Positions 2,205-64,000 of a stretch of 64,000 bases of DNA are shown here, in pieces; positions within the stretch are counted from its first letter, which is position 1, and each line of letters starts with the position of its first letter. The stretch is from a virus: the IMG/VR virus record IMGVR_UViG_3300032214_000528, positions 1 to 64,000 of that record; one strand, written 5' to 3'. Both the position numbers and the translations under genes were made by a program. Below the pieces are notes generated by a model. That model ran no database searches and was not told where the DNA came from. It saw nothing but the letters and a program-made list of their open reading frames with translations.

Positions 2205-9856
<7,652 letters not shown>

Positions 9857-27212: not shown

Positions 27213-27617
27213 ATGTATGAATACCGTGTAAAGAAAGTAACTGGCGTTGTTGATGGGGATACTATCGACGTTGAGCTTGACTTAGGTTTTAACATTTCTT
27301 ACTCTCAAAGAGTACGTCTTGCTGGGATTGACACTCCAGAGTCAAGAACTACAGATAAGAAAGAAAAAGCTTTAGGTCTTGAATCTAAGCAGCGTCTTAA
27401 AGATGTTCTCTCAAAGGCTCAGACTATTGTTATCCGTACAGAGCTACCTGATAGCTCAGAAAAATATGGCCGTATTCTCGGTTGGTTATTCTTAGATGGA
27501 GCGGAGCAGTCAGTTAATGAAGCTCTTGTTGCCGATGGCTATGCTTGGGGATATCTAGGAGATACAAAAGTTAAAAACTTTGAAGAGCTTGCTGCAAAAA
27601 GAAAAATATCTAACTAG
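27213..27617 (+). CDS. Thermonuclease (SNase-like) family nuclease
   Basis: VVDGDTIDV, RVRLAGIDTPE and KYGRILG motifs. Confidence 0.9.
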   Translation: MYEYRVKKVTGVVDGDTIDVELDLGFNISYSQRVRLAGIDTPESRTTDKKEKALGLESKQRLKDVLSKAQTIVIRTELPDSSEKYGRILGWLFLDGAEQSVNEALVADGYAWGYLGDTKVKNFEELAAKRKISN

Positions 27618-29023
27618 CCTTTAGGACTAAATACCCTAGCTCCACCTCCACCACCTCTAAATGGTGGAAGTCTTCTTGCGGATGGAGACTTTGCGGTGAT
27701 GCGGCCACCAGTAAAACCTTCAGGTGGTTTAATCATCAATGCGGTAAGTGCGTGCACTAATGCATCCACACGGTCTGGAGATTTTGAATCTCCTGGAATC
27801 CACGCTGTCATTTGCGACTCAAGATCAGCTAAATATCCAATATGATGAACACGACCTTGCTCGTATGCAAGGACTGTTGGCTCGGCACGCAATGCCTTGC
27901 CATACTTTGAGTGGACTTCTAAAACTTTAACATTTGGATCAATAGCATTAATTGCTTGACGAACTAGAGCTCCACCTTGATTAATTTCGGCAACCACTGG
28001 GCAACCCCAACGTCTAGCCATTTCAACAACTTTGTTTGCCCACACTTCTGGTGAGCCGAGAACAGATGCATCTTCAAGCACCCAAGCATGGCGCTTATAT
28101 AAATCTCTATCTGCAGTTGCAGCACAAACAACAATTCCACACTCATCTCGTGGGTTTTCTGCAACAGATGGGTCAACACCAATTACACGAAGTGGTGCTT
28201 GCGGTGGAAGAACTCCATGCCGTGATGCTTCAATCATTTCAATTGTCCACAATGCACCTTCAACATCTGAAAGCATTTCACCATAAAGTTCTTGAGCAGC
28301 AAGTCTAGTTCCTGCATATACACCAGTGATTGTGTCAAGATAAGTTGAGCTAAGGTTTCCAGCATTGTCCATTGTGCTACCACGGCTAATCACAACCTTG
28401 CCAGTCTTTTCTGCTTCAGCCATAAGTGAGTAAAGAAGTGGAACACGCTTTGGTGTAGTAGTAACCATAATCTGTGGAGATGCTCCAAGACGAGTACCCA
28501 CACGCAAGTTATCAAAAGCAGTCATACCAGCAGCATCTGGAGTCTGTCTCCATGCTGCAATCTCATCTCCCCACGCATGTGTAAATTGTGGACCACGGAG
28601 TGAGTCTGGTTCATCTGCGGTAAAACATGTTGCTGTATTTCCATTAGGCCAAGTTAATCGGCGCTTCGATGGTTCGTAAAGTGGACGCTCACTTGGTGGC
28701 GTCACATTCATAATTCCTGATTCACCTTCAACAATAACGTCACGCACATCTGCTGCAGTACGAGCAACTAATGCAAAGCGACGCTGACCTGTTGTTGTGT
28801 ATTTAGCTTGTTCTCTTACCCATTCGGACGCAGAGCGGGTCTTGCCCGCTCCACGTCCTGCAAGATAAATCCAAATATTCCAATCGCCTTCAGGAGCAAT
28901 CTGCTCTGGTCGACCCCACATGTTCCAATTCCATTTAACATCTTCCATGTTTAAGTCAGCAAGAACCGCATCACGTTCCTCTTCGGGAAGTGAAGCAAGT
29001 ATCTCCATCATGCTCTTAGCCAT
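27614..29023 (-). CDS. terL: Terminase large subunit
   Basis: Walker A AGRGAGKT, SLRGPQF, Walker B WGDEIAAW, TTTP motif III, nuclease VIGVDPS and SPDRVDA. Confidence 0.92.
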   Translation of the reverse strand: MAKSMMEILASLPEEERDAVLADLNMEDVKWNWNMWGRPEQIAPEGDWNIWIYLAGRGAGKTRSASEWVREQAKYTTTGQRRFALVARTAADVRDVIVEGESGIMNVTPPSERPLYEPSKRRLTWPNGNTATCFTADEPDSLRGPQFTHAWGDEIAAWRQTPDAAGMTAFDNLRVGTRLGASPQIMVTTTPKRVPLLYSLMAEAEKTGKVVISRGSTMDNAGNLSSTYLDTITGVYAGTRLAAQELYGEMLSDVEGALWTIEMIEASRHGVLPPQAPLRVIGVDPSVAENPRDECGIVVCAATADRDLYKRHAWVLEDASVLGSPEVWANKVVEMARRWGCPVVAEINQGGALVRQAINAIDPNVKVLEVHSKYGKALRAEPTVLAYEQGRVHHIGYLADLESQMTAWIPGDSKSPDRVDALVHALTALMIKPPEGFTGGRITAKSPSARRLPPFRGGGGGARVFSPKG

Positions 29024-33461: not shown

Positions 33462-34121
33462 CTAAGCGTTTTGCTTCCTTAAATAAACATGTCGTACAGT
33501 AGAGGCGTACCACTTAGCTCCACCTTGTACTGTTGGAATTGCTTCATTATTTAGGTTGTCAGCGATTGTTTTATAAGAAAGACCTGCATCTCTTTCTAAA
33601 AGTATTCTTTCTCTAATAGTTTCTTCTACTTGTGGAAGTGGTCCTAAATCAACTCCCCAAACCTTTTTATTGTCTCTTCTATCCTTATGAACATCCTTTT
33701 GACGCATGGAAATCATTCCACGTTCCATCTCTGCCATAGCAGACATAATTGTTACAACAAATCTTCCCTGATAAGTTCCTGTATCTAAACCTAGATCTAG
33801 TAATGCTAAACGCCACCCATACTTATGTGAGCGATCAACAATACTTAAAAAGTCACGAGTAGAACGAGCAAGTCGATCAAGACGAGTTACAAAAAGTGCT
33901 TTAGCTTTTCCTGTATCTAGGTCTTCTAAAGCTTGTCTTAAAACAGGACGACCAGTAATACTTTTACCAGAACGACCTTCTTCTCTAAGAATCACAGCTT
34001 CATACCCTGCTAGCTCTGCTGCAGCAATAAGTTGCTTTTCTTGAGCACCAAGACTCATGCCATCTTCTGCTTGCATCTGAGTCGAAACTCTTGCATAGCA
34101 GTAAGCAATGCCTTCACTCAT
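33462..34121 (-). CDS. Serine recombinase (resolvase catalytic domain plus short C-terminal DNA-binding domain)
   Basis: YARVST (catalytic Ser), EEGRSG, TRLDRLARS, AEMER, and C-terminal IADNLN...W. Confidence 0.9.
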   Translation of the reverse strand: MSEGIAYCYARVSTQMQAEDGMSLGAQEKQLIAAAELAGYEAVILREEGRSGKSITGRPVLRQALEDLDTGKAKALFVTRLDRLARSTRDFLSIVDRSHKYGWRLALLDLGLDTGTYQGRFVVTIMSAMAEMERGMISMRQKDVHKDRRDNKKVWGVDLGPLPQVEETIRERILLERDAGLSYKTIADNLNNEAIPTVQGGAKWYASTVRHVYLRKQNA

Positions 34122-37467: not shown

Positions 37468-38171
37468 TCCTTCGGGGAGGCTGTCTTACCTCCTTTTCTT
37501 ATTGTAGAGGCTGCCTTCTGCTTTTGTCTAGTGTCAAAACGTGATTTTCCGGGCGCCCGCTCCGTTAAAGGCGGGACGAGAGTGAGGGGGGAGAGGGTTG
37601 TGGGTGTGGGTGTGTTTGCCTTGCGTCTGGCTCTATATGCCCTCTGGTAGGCAGCTTTTACCTCTTTGGGGATACGAGCAACATGTTCACGATGCTGTTG
37701 CAGGTGGCAGGTCTTGCAGAGAGGGTAAGTTCTCTTTACGCCATTTCTGTCTGGGTAGGATCGGTAAGTTGTATTTTCCGGGCTTCTTGTGTGGCCGTTT
37801 TTGCAAAGTTTCTTTTCACTTGGCTTACCAACAATCTCTCCAATGGATCTGGCAATGCCTCGCTTGATGGCATCATTCTGATTTTGCTTAGGAGTTCCAA
37901 GCTCAAGGTGTTTGGGGTTAACGCAACGCTTAACATCGCAGGTATGCATAATGTGCATAGATGGGTCTGACATCTTATTTTTGTTCTTTGCCATAGCCCA
38001 AGACATCTTGTGTGCGCTTTGGATACTATTCTTTTCATAAGCAAAGCATCCATATCCTCTGCTGTTTGCTGAAGCAAGCCACAGCCAGCACTCGTCTTCG
38101 CCTCTAATATCAACCTTGTCCCAGAAGCGCTTGAGGCGGTTCTCGTCCATCTTGAGCTTGGTGACTTTCAT
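37464..38171 (-). CDS. HNH homing-type endonuclease
   Basis: RFWDKVD...CWLW...GYG...AHKMSW...HTCDVKRCVNPKHLELGT..QN, followed by CKNGH...CKTC. Confidence 0.9.
   Translation of the reverse strand: MKVTKLKMDENRLKRFWDKVDIRGEDECWLWLASANSRGYGCFAYEKNSIQSAHKMSWAMAKNKNKMSDPSMHIMHTCDVKRCVNPKHLELGTPKQNQNDAIKRGIARSIGEIVGKPSEKKLCKNGHTRSPENTTYRSYPDRNGVKRTYPLCKTCHLQQHREHVARIPKEVKAAYQRAYRARRKANTPTPTTLSPLTLVPPLTERAPGKSRFDTRQKQKAASTIRKGGKTASPKE
37544..37618. repeat. Dispersed element, copy A (25-bp core plus G-tracts and GT tail)
   Basis: ATTTTCCGGGCGCCCGCTCCGTTAA (2 mismatches to copies B/C), then GGG/GGGGGG/GGG/GGG/GGG and GTGTGTTT. Confidence 0.85.
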
Positions 38172-41786: not shown

Positions 41787-41862
41787 ATTTTCCGGGCGTC
41801 CACTCCGTTAACTGCAGAGGAGGGAGAAATCCGGGGAAGGGGGTTGTGTGTTTTTTGTCTTG
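41787..41862. repeat. Dispersed element, copy C
   Basis: 25-bp core identical to copy B, then GG-A-GGG...GGGG-AA-GGGGG and TTGTGTGTTTTTTG. Confidence 0.85.
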
Positions 41863-59469: not shown

Positions 59470-59541
59470 GCCTTCGTAACTCAGAGGAAGAGTATTCGGT
59501 TTCTACCCGACTTGCCGCAGGTTCGAATCCTGCCGAGGGCA
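59470..59541 (+). tRNA. tRNA-Arg(UCU)
   Basis: Acceptor GCCTTCG/CGAGGGC, D stem ACTC/GAGT, anticodon loop TT-TCT-AC, T arm GCAGG-TTCGAAT-CCTGC. No encoded CCA. Confidence 0.9.
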
Positions 59542-59774
59542 CTTTCAAAAGCACTTTTATAGCATACTTTTATACTTCTTTCGTACAAAGACTTCTATAA
59601 TAAAACATCATTTAATGCCCTAATCCCTGCGTAGTTCTTTACGCTCAGAACATATGTTGTTTATGAAAGGGTAAAACAGCCTGTATCTCGTTGCACGGGC
59701 GCAAAAATCTTTTTACCCCTAACCGTGCTATTGTTCATGTGTCAAGTACCCTGCTTGACGATATGGAGTAATAG

Positions 59775-60379: not shown

Positions 60380-61318
60380 ATGACAGACATTTCCCCCTTC
60401 GAAGCTGAAGATGGCCCGGAAGATACAACACCAGTTGTAGACACCCCCATCGACTACCGCCCTGACCTTTCGGCTCTTGGCATGCTCGAAGTTGAAAAGG
60501 GAGTTGTCGAAGACACCTACGAAAACAGAGCTGCCCTTCGAAAGGCGATGCTGAACTGGGATTCTGTTTATGACCAGTCAGGCGCCCCGACAGGGTTGAT
60601 TGCTGCCCGCTCACAAGAAGCCATCAAAGAAAGACGGCTAATGAGCTTGGCAGAGAAGAAACCGCTGTTGTTAGATCCAGGAAATAATAACTCAGATTTC
60701 CTAACGGGCCTCGAGCTCCTCCTAGACGATGACGCCATAAAGATTTGTCCACCTTGGGTTATCGGCGCAACCCGCACATGGCAAGCCGAACAAGAGACTG
60801 GCCCGAAATCATCTAAGCGAGCGCCAGCGGCTATGCCTCATCGCTGTACCAAAATTAAATCAGACGGCATCCGCTGCATGCTGTGGGGGTCAGGTCGTGT
60901 CAAAGATGACGGTTTGTGTCGAGTCCACCTCAAAGGCATTAGACGGCCGGGCGCAGATGTCGAACGGGCAAGAATCAAGATTATGCAATCGGCAAGCTAT
61001 GCTGTGGATAAGCTTGAAGAGTTAATGGAGAACGCAGTCTCTGAACCAGTCCAACTTAAAGCGGCAACGGAACTACTTGACCGTGCTGGAGTCCGAGGCG
61101 GGACCGAGCTGGATATCGGAGTTGATATTTCCGGGGAGAGGCCAGCTCACGTCATCGTGGCTGAACGTCTGCAACGGCTAGCGGCAGGTGCTGCACACAC
61201 GGCAAGCAACCTAGCTAACGACGGGGTAAAAATAATTGACGCCGAAGTATCGGATGTCTATGACATAACAACCGCAGCCAAAGAGGAAGACGGGCCAGAT
61301 CCAGATGACCGCAAATAA
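60380..61318 (+). CDS. Putative terminase small subunit-like protein with CCCH finger
   Basis: RCT.....G.RC...G...C.VH, then ELMENAVSEPVQLKAATELLDRAG, a helix common in phage TerS-like proteins. Confidence 0.5.
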   Translation: MTDISPFEAEDGPEDTTPVVDTPIDYRPDLSALGMLEVEKGVVEDTYENRAALRKAMLNWDSVYDQSGAPTGLIAARSQEAIKERRLMSLAEKKPLLLDPGNNNSDFLTGLELLLDDDAIKICPPWVIGATRTWQAEQETGPKSSKRAPAAMPHRCTKIKSDGIRCMLWGSGRVKDDGLCRVHLKGIRRPGADVERARIKIMQSASYAVDKLEELMENAVSEPVQLKAATELLDRAGVRGGTELDIGVDISGERPAHVIVAERLQRLAAGAAHTASNLANDGVKIIDAEVSDVYDITTAAKEEDGPDPDDRK

Positions 61319-61505
61319 TAATTCGGTTTCACTAGCTCAAGAGCTAGCCGCTAACCTCCATGCCGACATCGGCTTGGCAAAGACTAGAGAAGAACATATC
61401 CGAGTAACGGCACGGGCTAATGCAGCTGCCGCTCTTTTAGCGGAACTAAATATTCCACTTTACGAATTCGATCAAGCAACTTTCACAAGCGGCAAGGACG
61501 AGTAG
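61305..61505 (+). CDS. Hypothetical protein
   Basis: 66-aa ORF overlapping the upstream stop. Confidence 0.55.
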   Translation: MTANNNSVSLAQELAANLHADIGLAKTREEHIRVTARANAAAALLAELNIPLYEFDQATFTSGKDE

Positions 61506-61507
61506 GT

Positions 61508-61550
61508 TTATATAACCAATACGCTAACGGATAGCGTATTAGTTATATAA
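61508..61550. repeat. 19-bp near-perfect inverted repeat
   Basis: TTATATAACCAATACGCTA-ACGGA-TAGCGTATTAGTTATATAA, with 1 mismatch. Confidence 0.85.
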
Positions 61551-61823
61551 ACAAATGTCAAGCAAGCGGCAAGGGAATCGCACATTGTTATTTACTCACG
61601 AGTAGTTGAAGTTTCAACTAGCGGCGTGGGATAGGGACGCTCGAATATATAACGGATCGTTGTCACACGAGCTCGAGGAGTGCTAACGGATGTTGTTACT
61701 TCCGGGGTCTACAGCTGCAGATCCACTGAACGGTGGACAGACTTAATTCTAACCCTGTACGCCTGAACCAAATAGATGACGGATAGTTAACAGTTTCGCT
61801 GTCAAAGCGGAAAGGGCCCCTTA

Positions 61824-62695
61824 GCCCGGAAAATATAATACAAGACGCAGCGAAGACGAGGCAGCTGCCGCCGGGAACAAACAACTGTGAGCAATAAAAT
61901 CACCGGGTCGGCACGAGCGTGATCGGATCTAGATCTCCAGGAAATAACAAATTCAGAACGTGACAGCAGCAGCTGCAGTGAACCCCGGAACTAAATACTT
62001 GACTTGAGCACAGCGGCGTGCCAGGATGGATCCAGATCTCCGGGAAAAAACAATCTTTTTTGCCAGGGCCGGGATGGAGCTCCTCCAGCCGGGAAATAAT
62101 AATTTGACTACAGCGGCTAGGGGACCAACGGGTCCAACAGGACCAATCGGTACAACGGTGGCGGTGGAGGCGGAGGCGGCGTGCTTGCATCAAGCCCGGA
62201 AAATATAATACCGAGGAAGACGGATCCGGGTCCCTGGAAAATAAAACATCGGCTTGGGTATACAGCTGCAGCTTGACAACGGCTTGGGATTCAAAGAGCG
62301 GCATGGGATAGAGCGCTCGCAATATATAACGGTGTGAGTTGTGGGACGCAGCTTGTAGCTCGATGCTGGGAACTAATAACTTAACGGTGCGTGTAGCTTG
62401 ACAAGCATTTGACAGGGTGGTTACACTTTGCGTGCAAGTGCTCGCAAAGCGGACATAACGGTCCCCGGAAATAAAAACTCGACAGCGCATCACAGCTGCA
62501 GCTCCAGACGCTGGTCATCAACTTTAAACATATGCATGGTTGTCTACGTTGACTTTCGAAGTGACGGGGACCAGATCTGAATCCTGGAAAATAGAATGTA
62601 ACGTTAGGGCCCGCAGCTCCAGTGCGTCAGCCGGGAAAATATAATATCGAGGAAGACCACCCGGATGGCCGCCTCCTCCCGGAACTAATAATTTG
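61824..62695 (+). repeat. Array of 13 co-oriented CCNGG-AA-A-tract motifs in a non-coding region
   Basis: Copies at about 61825, 61871, 61937, 61984, 62040, 62089, 62195, 62233, 62366 (CTGGG variant), 62464, 62583, 62631 and 62678. Confidence 0.85.
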
Positions 62696-62748
62696 TTTGC
62701 CCATGACAGCTACAGGTCGACTCACGAAAACTTTCTTGCTGTTAGTGC

Positions 62749-62778
62749 TTGACACAAAAAGAAACTGTGCTCTATGAT
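62749..62778 (+). promoter_or_regulatory. SigA-type promoter
   Basis: TTGACA-N18-TATGAT. Confidence 0.7.
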
Positions 62779-62824
62779 AAATCCTGCAGCAGAAATTACT
62801 CTGCTAAATGACGAAGGGAACACC

Positions 62825-63268
62825 ATGGGTTACACGCACTACTACACAAAGACTGGCACATCAGTCGAAGACTCTCGCCTCTTTGAAATGTTTATGAATG
62901 GGGCTCGAACCATTATCGAGTACGCCACTACTGTGGACAAGATTCAACTCGCAGACGGAATGGGTGATCATCTCGGCCAGTGGGAATGCTCAAAAGAAAA
63001 TGTTTGGTTCAACGGCTACGGGCCAGATTCACACGAGACCTTTAACTGGTCCTTGGATTCCTCAGGCTTTGGATTTACAAAGACGGCACGCAAACCATAC
63101 GACGCCGTAGTAACGGCATGCCTCATACATCTCAAAGATGTATACGGAGACTTGGTCAGCATCGGCTCGGACGGCTCGTGGTCTGAGTGGCAAGACGGGG
63201 CAAGGCTTTACCGCAACGCAACGGGCTTGACGGCGAGCGCACCATTCGATTTGGAAGAAGCAATCTAA
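62825..63268 (+). CDS. Hypothetical phage protein (MGYTHY...F.F.KTARKPYD.VV.A.L type)
   Basis: ATG 62825 follows an AAGGGA RBS. The track start at 62774 overlaps the -10 box. Confidence 0.75.
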   Translation: MGYTHYYTKTGTSVEDSRLFEMFMNGARTIIEYATTVDKIQLADGMGDHLGQWECSKENVWFNGYGPDSHETFNWSLDSSGFGFTKTARKPYDAVVTACLIHLKDVYGDLVSIGSDGSWSEWQDGARLYRNATGLTASAPFDLEEAI

Positions 63269-63386
63269 AAAACAAATAGATATTACGGCGTGCCCTTTAA
63301 GCCTGTGCAGTGACACGGCAAGGGTGCGCCGTATCTTTTTAAACAACGGCATGGGATAGCCCCAGCCTCTACGAAAGGACACACGG

Positions 63387-63614
63387 ATGACACGCAAGAT
63401 AGTTACAACAATAGAAATCGAGTTCGACGAAGCTGTGATGCTCGAGGACCGGGAAAATATAATGACGGATGACGAACTTCAGATCTACGCAGCGGAGTTG
63501 TTCTGCGAGGATATCTACAACTTGGTGAAGTACAACGAACTTTATGATGTAGCGGTTGCACGCACAAGAATCGTTGATGCTGCAAATGACCAGTCCCCGG
63601 AACAAATAATTTGA
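63387..63614 (+). CDS. Acidic hypothetical protein
   Basis: GAAAGGA RBS upstream. Confidence 0.6.
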   Translation: MTRKIVTTIEIEFDEAVMLEDRENIMTDDELQIYAAELFCEDIYNLVKYNELYDVAVARTRIVDAANDQSPEQII

Positions 63615-63700
63615 CGACAGCGAAGACCACCAGGCCCTGGACCGGGAAAAAATAATTCGCTGTCGAGGCCTGGAGGAAATCTATCGCCGGGAACTCACAA
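63449..63700 (+). repeat. Four further CCNGG-AA motifs
   Basis: Copies at 63449, 63596, 63642 and 63687, in the same orientation as the main array. Confidence 0.75.
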
Positions 63701-63801
63701 CTTCATTTACCAAGATGTCTAGTGTCTGAAAACCTTAGGCTCAATGATGTCCTAATCTAGAAAGGTATGATAAGGTTTTCCTAAATGACGAAAGGGAAAA
63801 A

Positions 63802-64000
63802 ATGCAATACACATTTAGATTCAATGAAATTGCAATGAACCAAGTTTGGTTTGAGGCAAAAGATGATGAAGAGGCGAAGTCTCTTATGAAGCAACTAATG
63901 GAAGATGAAATCAACATCAACGACCTTCCTGAAGTTGGGGAACGCAATAGAGGAATTGACTTGGACTTCAGCGTTTCAATCTTGGAAGATGAAAACTTCC
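63802..64000 (+). CDS. Hypothetical protein, truncated by the window end
   Basis: Manual read: MQYTFRFNEIAMNQVWFEAKDDEEAKSLMKQLMEDEI..., with an AAAGGGA RBS. Confidence 0.65.
   Translation, partial: MQYTFRFNEIAMNQVWFEAKDDEEAKSLMKQLMEDEININDLPEVGERNRGIDLDFSVSILEDENF

Follow-up and report, generated by a model that had tools for sequence, protein, structure and literature searches.

The small-terminase sites of well-known phages are compact: the R sites of lambda cosB, pacL and pacR of SPP1, and the pac hexamers of P1 each occupy at most 300 bp and comprise three to seven repeats. The terminal repeats of phage T5 include untranslated regions (iss) that hold conserved host DnaA boxes together with large inverted repeats (bioRxiv 10.1101/866236). 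In Cluster A mycobacteriophages, stoperators are asymmetric sites found genome-wide and read by the immunity repressor of these temperate phages (PMC9283540, PMC6550527), and the clt loci of Streptomyces conjugative plasmids are 8-bp direct repeats read by TraB (PMC4447253). Here we describe an array of 17 short words at 61825–63700 in the virus record IMGVR_UViG_3300032214_000528, downstream of the gene for a conserved protein that we call P0001. The record is a complete virus genome of 135,031 bp with 43% GC, and its first 64 kb (64,000 nucleotides, hereafter the window) were analyzed as one stretch. Its genes for a tape measure, a major head protein, a portal, and a polyvalent protein of 4200 amino acids identify this lake phage as a siphovirus, and an actinobacterial host is indicated by the similarity of its proteins to those of phages of Microbacterium, Arthrobacter, and Gordonia.

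The array shares part of its design with each of these systems. As in T5, a kilobase-scale gene-free stretch of direct repeats and palindromes lies among the early genes of a large siphovirus and is conserved in place across relatives, and cultured relatives of the window phage have long terminal repeats; unlike the T5 region, however, it lacks DnaA boxes and large inverted repeats, and each unit carries one short, polar, lineage-specific word. The likeness to small-terminase sites lies in repeated, short, phage-specific sites beside a small-terminase-like gene near a genome end (here placed by homology), but 17 words extend over 1.9 kb, the large terminase gene is 32 kb away, and P0001 is only a putative terminase. 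An earlier interpretation made without database searches (the sequence-only reading) had drawn an analogy with stoperators. The analogy holds for an actinophage with many short asymmetric sites co-oriented with transcription (17 of 17 on the + strand), and the variation among lineages is what would be expected if the sites co-evolve with their reader protein; it fails in that the array is clustered in 1.9 kb rather than spread genome-wide, with no repressor or integrase module linked to it. The clt loci are likewise plasmid- or lineage-specific direct repeats in non-coding actinobacterial DNA that mark DNA for a handling machine, but the phage words are longer and no FtsK/TraB-like gene was found in the phage genome (best PF01580 match 10.5 bits, below the cut-off).

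The word, CCnGGAAnnnAnAA, consists of CCNGGAA followed by an A/T-rich octamer, and its strand is the coding strand of the flanking genes. CCNGG is present in 16 of the 17 copies (the exception, at 62366, reads CTGGG), with a free center at which C, G, A, and T all occur. Allowing up to one mismatch, CCNGGAAMWNANAA matched the window 40 times, compared with 4.75 ± 2.06 in shuffled sequences. Between 61800 and 63720, CCNGGAA occurs 16 times on the + strand and never on the − strand, whereas first-order Markov simulations preserving the dinucleotide content of that same segment predict 0.67 ± 0.84 occurrences, with a maximum of 5 in 2000 runs; local GC content, a cause that the sequence-only reading had itself raised, therefore does not explain the count. 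That reading's description of a polar array with free-centered CCNGG was borne out, as were the exact duplication of a 19-mer, AGCCCGGAAAATATAATAC, at 61823 and 62193 and the GAAGAC that directly follows several copies. Word starts are 38–147 nt apart, most often 45–49 nt (7 of 16 intervals), and the words are degenerate, so a CRISPR array was rejected, again as the earlier reading had it. The genome-wide search that it proposed showed how concentrated the words are: a strict pattern recovered 15 of the 17 array copies, and 15 of the 21 copies in the whole 135-kb genome lie within the 1.9 kb of the array, the others being three on the + strand (one at 60677 within the upstream gene, the rest at 65162 and 72730) and three on the − strand. 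Two isolated copies of GCCCGGAAAATACAACTT, at 37782 and 41796 (both −) in the leftward-transcribed arm, overlap a 25-bp element that is present three times at 37.5–41.8 kb; two of its copies contain CCCGGAAAATACAAC on the − strand.

Thirteen of the words fall within a gene-free interval (61506–62748, ~1.2 kb, with no conserved open reading frame, ORF), for which the array's description as largely non-coding is right; the remaining four (63449–63687) lie in or between small real genes. The sole long frame in the gene-free interval, on the − strand, is interrupted by indels in a close relative, contig L005, whose upstream protein is 99% identical to P0001; the lengths of these indels are not divisible by three. 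Amino-acid identity to L005 is 58% over this frame compared with ~76% at the nucleotide level, while the adjoining real gene shows 86% amino-acid and 84% nucleotide identity. Given the frame-breaking indels and the excess of amino-acid change, selection does not act on the frame as a protein; the frame results from the scarcity of T on the + strand. We also rejected an RNA element: Rfam found only the tRNA-Arg at 59470, and the predicted fold of the array was no more stable than that of shuffled sequences (z −0.45). The density of 6-bp palindromes in the array region is the highest in the genome (27 per kb vs. 11 ± 4.8). The spacers contain fragments of collagen-like Gly-X-Y coding sequence (window 62121–62160; L005 about 7790–7850) that match the collagen repeats of the same phage's tail-fiber genes at 0.5–4 kb and 16–19 kb and look like captured gene scraps.

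Comparison with L005, in which 15 word copies could be paired with those of the window, separated the conserved from the drifting positions of the word. Identity across the 15 pairs was 93% at CC, 40% at the center, 100% at GG, 93–100% at the following AA, 60–73% at positions 8–10, 100% at A11, 53% at position 12, and 87–100% at AA13–14. The remaining word positions were 53–80% conserved, and the spacers were 76% identical, with indels. The positions fixed between the two phages are those common to the copies within the array, and the retention of CC.GGAA...A.AA amid drift elsewhere is a footprint of selection. Contigs from three other freshwater-sample studies also hold the array, including variants in which whole units have been replaced.

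More distant relatives keep the locus and change the word. Homologues of P0001 number more than 1800, and we located one on 112 IMG/VR contigs. At least 30 related lake-phage contigs carry arrays of their own words at the same locus and on the same strand, and most relatives with enough downstream DNA do so, whereas the CCNGGAA word occurs among relatives in L005 only; the word is therefore specific to its lineage, and the family as a whole does not conserve CCNGG. In L010, the word is a perfect 16-bp palindrome, GGAAATTATAATTTCC, present in 12 copies, and the array is fully syntenic, flanked by equivalents of the 66-amino-acid ORF that follows P0001 and of the first early gene. L062 carries 12 copies of AACTTCCAACGAA, often with a GAAGTT partner ~16 nt downstream, and L053 has seven copies of its word; in the complete 136-kb genome that holds L053, six of eight word copies are inside the array. 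ACATCCAAATAACTT and AACTTCCAAATAACTT are the words of L018 and L053, AACTTTTAACGAA is that of L072, and L070 is built of ~50-bp tandem units around GCAACCTGCCTATAGG (core CCTATAGG). Several lineage words, including those of L010 and L070, have dyad symmetry. The first gene past the L070 array (8380–9000) encodes a protein of 206 amino acids in which, by eye only, a winged helix with an AT-hook (KKRGRPLGSKNRP) can be made out; it is a possible candidate reader of the L070 word, and the window phage's genome has no homologue of it. A second repeated box, (A/G)CGGC(A/G)TGGGATAG followed by TATATAACGG, occurs at 61613–61660, 62290–62335, and 63338–63359, is recognizable in the L010 array too, and may be a promoter or regulatory site.

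A further motif, RCGGCNHGS, is shared across the family. In the first 2 kb after the P0001 homologue (34 loci), it reaches 5.6 per kb on the + strand, compared with 0.03–0.06 per kb upstream of the homologue and 0.4 per kb on the − strand. It has no conserved flanks and was seen at 60900–64000 and on to ~75 kb in the window phage, as well as in the first 3 kb past the P0001 homologue in L009–L083. Its association with hairpin arms is weak (27% vs. 18% in controls). The same 2 kb are GC-richer and 4- to 10-fold enriched in CAGCTG, CTGCAG, GAGCTC, and GGATCC.

The N-terminus of P0001 is acidic; the protein also has an alpha/beta domain, a zinc knuckle (C-x9-C-x13-C-x2-H), and C-terminal helices that carry LKAATELLDRAG. 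None of its homologues has a name, searches against Pfam and PHROG returned no family, and an atlas look-up returned no named family. A profile built from 22 homologues matched the helical core of small terminases (7joq, E 0.0011 over residues 201–252; 6w7t, E 0.16), weakly, around LKAAxxILDRAG. In a search of 1.8 billion representative proteins, relatives of 190–250 amino acids were found that consist of a short N-terminus, a C3H zinc knuckle, and helices, 2 of the 10 scanned giving weak matches to the Pfam WRC (C3H) family (the better with E 0.0025); a locus search with one short homologue, P0203, yielded no loci. The structure model of P0001 was poor, with a predicted local distance difference test score of 59, and that of a short homologue was better (72.5); Foldseek and a wide structural search returned generic helical matches only.

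The genomic position of P0001 homologues in cultured phages is more telling. In 12 cultured-phage records, which start at the physical end, the homologue is gene 1, with 19–63 nt separating it from that left end, and its second copy in each record places it inside the terminal repeat; these include Microbacterium phages Big4, Zooman, Cece, Pumpernickel, and A3Wally and Arthrobacter phages Atuin, Mimi, Racecar, and Talia1610, and the Cece record labels it terminase small subunit. The Big4 terminal repeat (17,669 bp) opens with gene 1, followed by a small gene 2 that overlaps it and by an endolysin gene, an order that recurs in several lake relatives. Genes 1 and 2 of Big4 have the same layout as P0001 and its 66-amino-acid neighbor, a homologue of which immediately follows the P0001 homologue in 23 loci (tblastn). 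Big4 has a polar word of its own, CGAACCGTG, with 11 of 15 + strand matches in the first 3.6 kb from the end and 20 matches on both strands of 20 kb, against 7.8 ± 2.9 expected. Microbacterium phages of 55 kb carry the homologue as their final gene, 96 nt short of the right end. Three relatives' contigs begin at a homologous site ~0.4–0.7 kb upstream of P0001, too few to call a terminus, and the contigs that cover the region, which come from DNA runs, do not show molecule ends. No RNA run was among the public runs listed for the array.

Coordinates of the features at the locus are collected in Table 1. The equivalent of the hairpin that follows the 66-amino-acid ORF is a similar long inverted repeat in L053, and a homologue of the first early gene past the array also comes after the array in L009 and L010. 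Promoters of the AGAAAGGTATGAT type, distinct from the array words, lie at ~63768 and ~72783.

Table 1. Features of the array locus, with positions in the window.
Feature	Position	Strand	Basis or remark
P0001, conserved protein of 312 amino acids; candidate array reader	60380–61318	+	homologue searches, profile match
ORF of 66 amino acids, coiled-coil-like; start overlaps P0001 stop (ATGA)	61305–61505	+	tblastn, relatives
Hairpin with 21-nt arms, right after the 66-amino-acid ORF	61506–61552	.	repeat search (I1)
Word 1, CCCGGAAAATATAAT	61825–61839	+	pattern search
Word 2, CCGGGAACAAACAAC	61871–61885	+	pattern search
Word 3, CCAGGAAATAACAAA	61937–61951	+	pattern search
Word 4, CCCGGAACTAAATAC	61984–61998	+	pattern search; kept in L005
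Word 5, CCGGGAAAAAACAAT	62040–62054	+	center G; T in L005
Word 6, CCGGGAAATAATAAT	62089–62103	+	pattern search; L005 pairing
Word 7, CCCGGAAAATATAAT	62195–62209	+	pattern search; L005 pairing
Word 8, CCTGGAAAATAAAAC	62233–62247	+	pattern search; L005 pairing
Word 9, CTGGGAACTAATAAC, sole copy without CCNGG; CCTGG in L005	62366–62380	+	pattern search; L005 pairing
Word 10, CCCGGAAATAAAAAC	62464–62478	+	pattern search; L005 pairing
Word 11, CCTGGAAAATAGAAT	62583–62597	+	pattern search; L005 pairing
Word 12, CCGGGAAAATATAAT	62631–62645	+	pattern search; L005 pairing
Word 13, CCCGGAACTAATAAT, final word ahead of first early promoter	62678–62692	+	pattern search; L005 pairing
Sigma-70-like promoter of next gene, TTGACA-18-TATGAT	62749–62778	+	11 of 12 consensus positions; kept in L005
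First early gene past the array, 147 amino acids, N-terminus MGYTHY	62825–63268	+	85.7% amino-acid identity in L005
Word 14, CCGGGAAAATATAAT, within small ORF	63449–63463	+	pattern search; L005 pairing
Word 15, CCCGGAACAAATAAT, over last codons of a 75-amino-acid ORF	63596–63610	+	pattern search; L005 pairing
Word 16, CCGGGAAAAAATAAT	63642–63656	+	pattern search; L005 pairing
Word 17, CCGGGAACTCACAAC, ~80 nt ahead of next early promoter (−10 TATGAT at ~63768)	63687–63701	+	pattern search

Hairpins also lie past stop codons at 63285–63340 and at genome positions 65180–65215; their stems close only through G-U pairs and so act at the RNA level, and the first, being followed by a T run, is the terminator of the MGYTHY gene. 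A tRNA-Arg(TCT) gene is located at 59470–59542 in the operon upstream of P0001, and several relatives have contigs that break off within tRNA genes at the equivalent position. A small serine recombinase/invertase (219 amino acids, 33462–34121, − strand) is encoded between a large PA14/fn3 protein and thymidylate synthase and has no known link to the array.

We predict that the array is probably a protein-binding region of some kind. The sequence-only reading had proposed a multivalent protein-loading platform, and what was found since fits that proposal: selected positions within the words, arrays of different words at one fixed locus, dyad-symmetric words, and a small-terminase-like neighbor associated with genome ends in cultured phages. 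Taken together, these features suggest a protein platform at the head of a terminal early region, and because each lineage has its own word there, the words are most likely a protein landing strip rather than a restriction decoy. Our tentative choice among the specific explanations is a cis-acting platform with multiple sites for a DNA-binding protein that the phage encodes, serving packaging or terminus recognition, with P0001 as the favored reader; a terminus or packaging role as such we regard as a possibility only slightly short of that. About 17 co-oriented sites, each read through CC.GGAA...A.AA by a phage-encoded sequence-specific protein, would be separated by GC-rich spacers free to vary, and the array would evolve by gain, loss, and replacement of units. 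It would stand at the head of the early region beside P0001, at a position that homology puts just within the physical left end or the terminal repeat. Its reader may be an oligomeric, small-terminase-like zinc protein, P0001 itself, perhaps with the coupled 66-amino-acid partner, and the complex would mark and orient the genome end for packaging or terminus handling in the manner of pac or cosB, the nucleoprotein sitting immediately ahead of the first early promoters.

Several observations weigh against this assignment. The likeness of P0001 to small terminases is one weak profile match, with no clear match in fold searches; the large terminase gene (27614–29023, − strand) is preceded by a small ORF of its own that gives a weak hint of a helix-turn-helix; and 17 sites over 1.9 kb far exceed the size of known pac and cosB sites. 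The zinc knuckle of P0001 hardly varies among lineages whose words differ and so cannot by itself set word specificity; P0001 would fit better as reader of the family-wide RCGGCNHGS. Same-strand genes precede P0001, and in Gordonia phage Forza the P0001 module is the C-terminus of a protein beside DNA polymerase I. On balance, we lean slightly toward packaging or terminus recognition; an operator or roadblock cluster follows closely in likelihood, and both roles could coincide.

As an operator or roadblock cluster, the words would be bound by a lineage-specific phage repressor or activator, possibly an early-gene product, whose cooperative occupation switches the adjacent early promoters or halts read-through from the upstream operon in the way of stoperators. 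This is a possible reading, though a doubtful one taken alone. The arrays of the window phage, L010, L062, and L070 stop 35–250 nt before sigma-70-like early promoters, the dyad symmetry of the L010 and L070 words is usual for dimer operators, and lone copies also stand near promoters, those at 72730 and 63687 before AGAAAGGTATGAT-type promoters and the one at 41796 (−) 6 nt before a TATAAT; the presumed winged helix of the first post-array protein of L070 would suit such a regulator. Yet no regulator, and no immunity repressor in particular, was identified in the genome, 13 sites in gene-free DNA are many for one promoter, and the sites lack the genome-wide distribution of stoperators. The words might instead be promoters in their own right, a −10-like TATAAT with a lineage-private upstream extension being read by host RNA polymerase and a phage factor for strong early transcription or short RNAs. 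TATAAT does occur in 4 copies, xAxAAT fits 11 of the 17 and TANNNT every copy in L010, and the words are oriented like the downstream genes, but no −35 stands at a fixed distance, no conserved element lies upstream of the words, and T−7 is absent in 6 of 17 copies; consensus promoters are found elsewhere, the real early genes having separate ones past the words (62749 and ~63768), so sigma-70-type promoters were rejected for the words. The words of other lineages (AACTTCCAACGAA, GCAACCTGCCTATAGG) are unlike a −10, a 45-nt spacing is too short for transcription units, the RNA fold is unremarkable, and neither a phage RNA polymerase nor a sigma factor was found in the genome, all of which leaves this reading quite improbable. 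It is only marginally less so for control of DNA entry or end protection on the model of T5 iss, in which untranslated repeats in the leading terminal repeat would pause, anchor, or shield the incoming DNA until early proteins are made. The phage is a T5-sized siphovirus whose relatives have 17.7-kb terminal repeats full of small early genes, and both the palindrome maximum and the polar RCGGCNHGS peak fall in the array region. DnaA boxes, however, are not enriched (for TTGTCCACA at up to one mismatch, 18 matches vs. 19 expected, none among the array words), lineage-specific words favor a phage reader over a host reader, two-step injection is not known for such phages, and the mechanism is unproven even in T5. 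With regard to an iteron origin or a plasmid-type centromere, the spacing is irregular in the window and ~50-bp tandem units occur in L070, with no adjacent ParA, Rep, or replication genes.

The sequence-only reading had also offered a decoy that titrates host enzymes at CCNGG or CCWGG, and a cluster of CCNGG/CCGG sites that soaks up such enzymes can be considered together with a functionless satellite homogenized by unequal crossing-over; we consider either very unlikely. Outside the array, CCWGG is avoided (42 of each vs. 108–133 expected), as is CCGG (66 vs. 146), and 26 of the 177 CCNGG sites in the genome lie in the array, where they stand out because the rest of the genome avoids CCWGG, CCGG, and CGCG. 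Genome-wide, CGCG was seen 18 times against 111 expected, and ACGT, GTAC, and CATG are at ~0.55 of expectation; the avoidance of these sites suggests pressure from several host restriction systems. The decoy nevertheless did not survive comparison with relatives, whose words (GGAAATTATAATTTCC, AACTTCCAAATAACTT, AACTTCCAACGAA) lack CCNGG. Moreover, a cluster of sites would attract multi-site enzymes rather than protect against them, and no C5 or N4/N6 methyltransferase gene was found in the genome. For a satellite speak the young L070 array with its ~50-bp period and the unit replacement in contigs from other samples, but a position-specific footprint beside diverging spacers argues against neutrality.

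Packaging, entry, and timing are decided by cis-acting DNA signals that have hardly been studied in uncultured phages. The signal defined here is strongly enriched and visibly selected; its location is constant while its sequence varies throughout a very large family of lake actinophages. It offers binding sites that can be tested, a candidate for their reader, and, for metagenome assemblies of apparently circular form, a guide to where the genome probably ends. A more far-reaching proposal, which as a joint claim we hold to be rather unlikely, is that the words form an address code that evolves fast within the terminal repeat of abundant lake actinophages. The small-terminase-like zinc protein of gene 1 would polymerize on the polar array to pick and orient its own genome for packaging and may also set the timing of the first early promoters; its invariant zinc knuckle would read RCGGCNHGS as a second, common layer, and phage lineages that occur together would vary their words so as not to handle one another's DNA.

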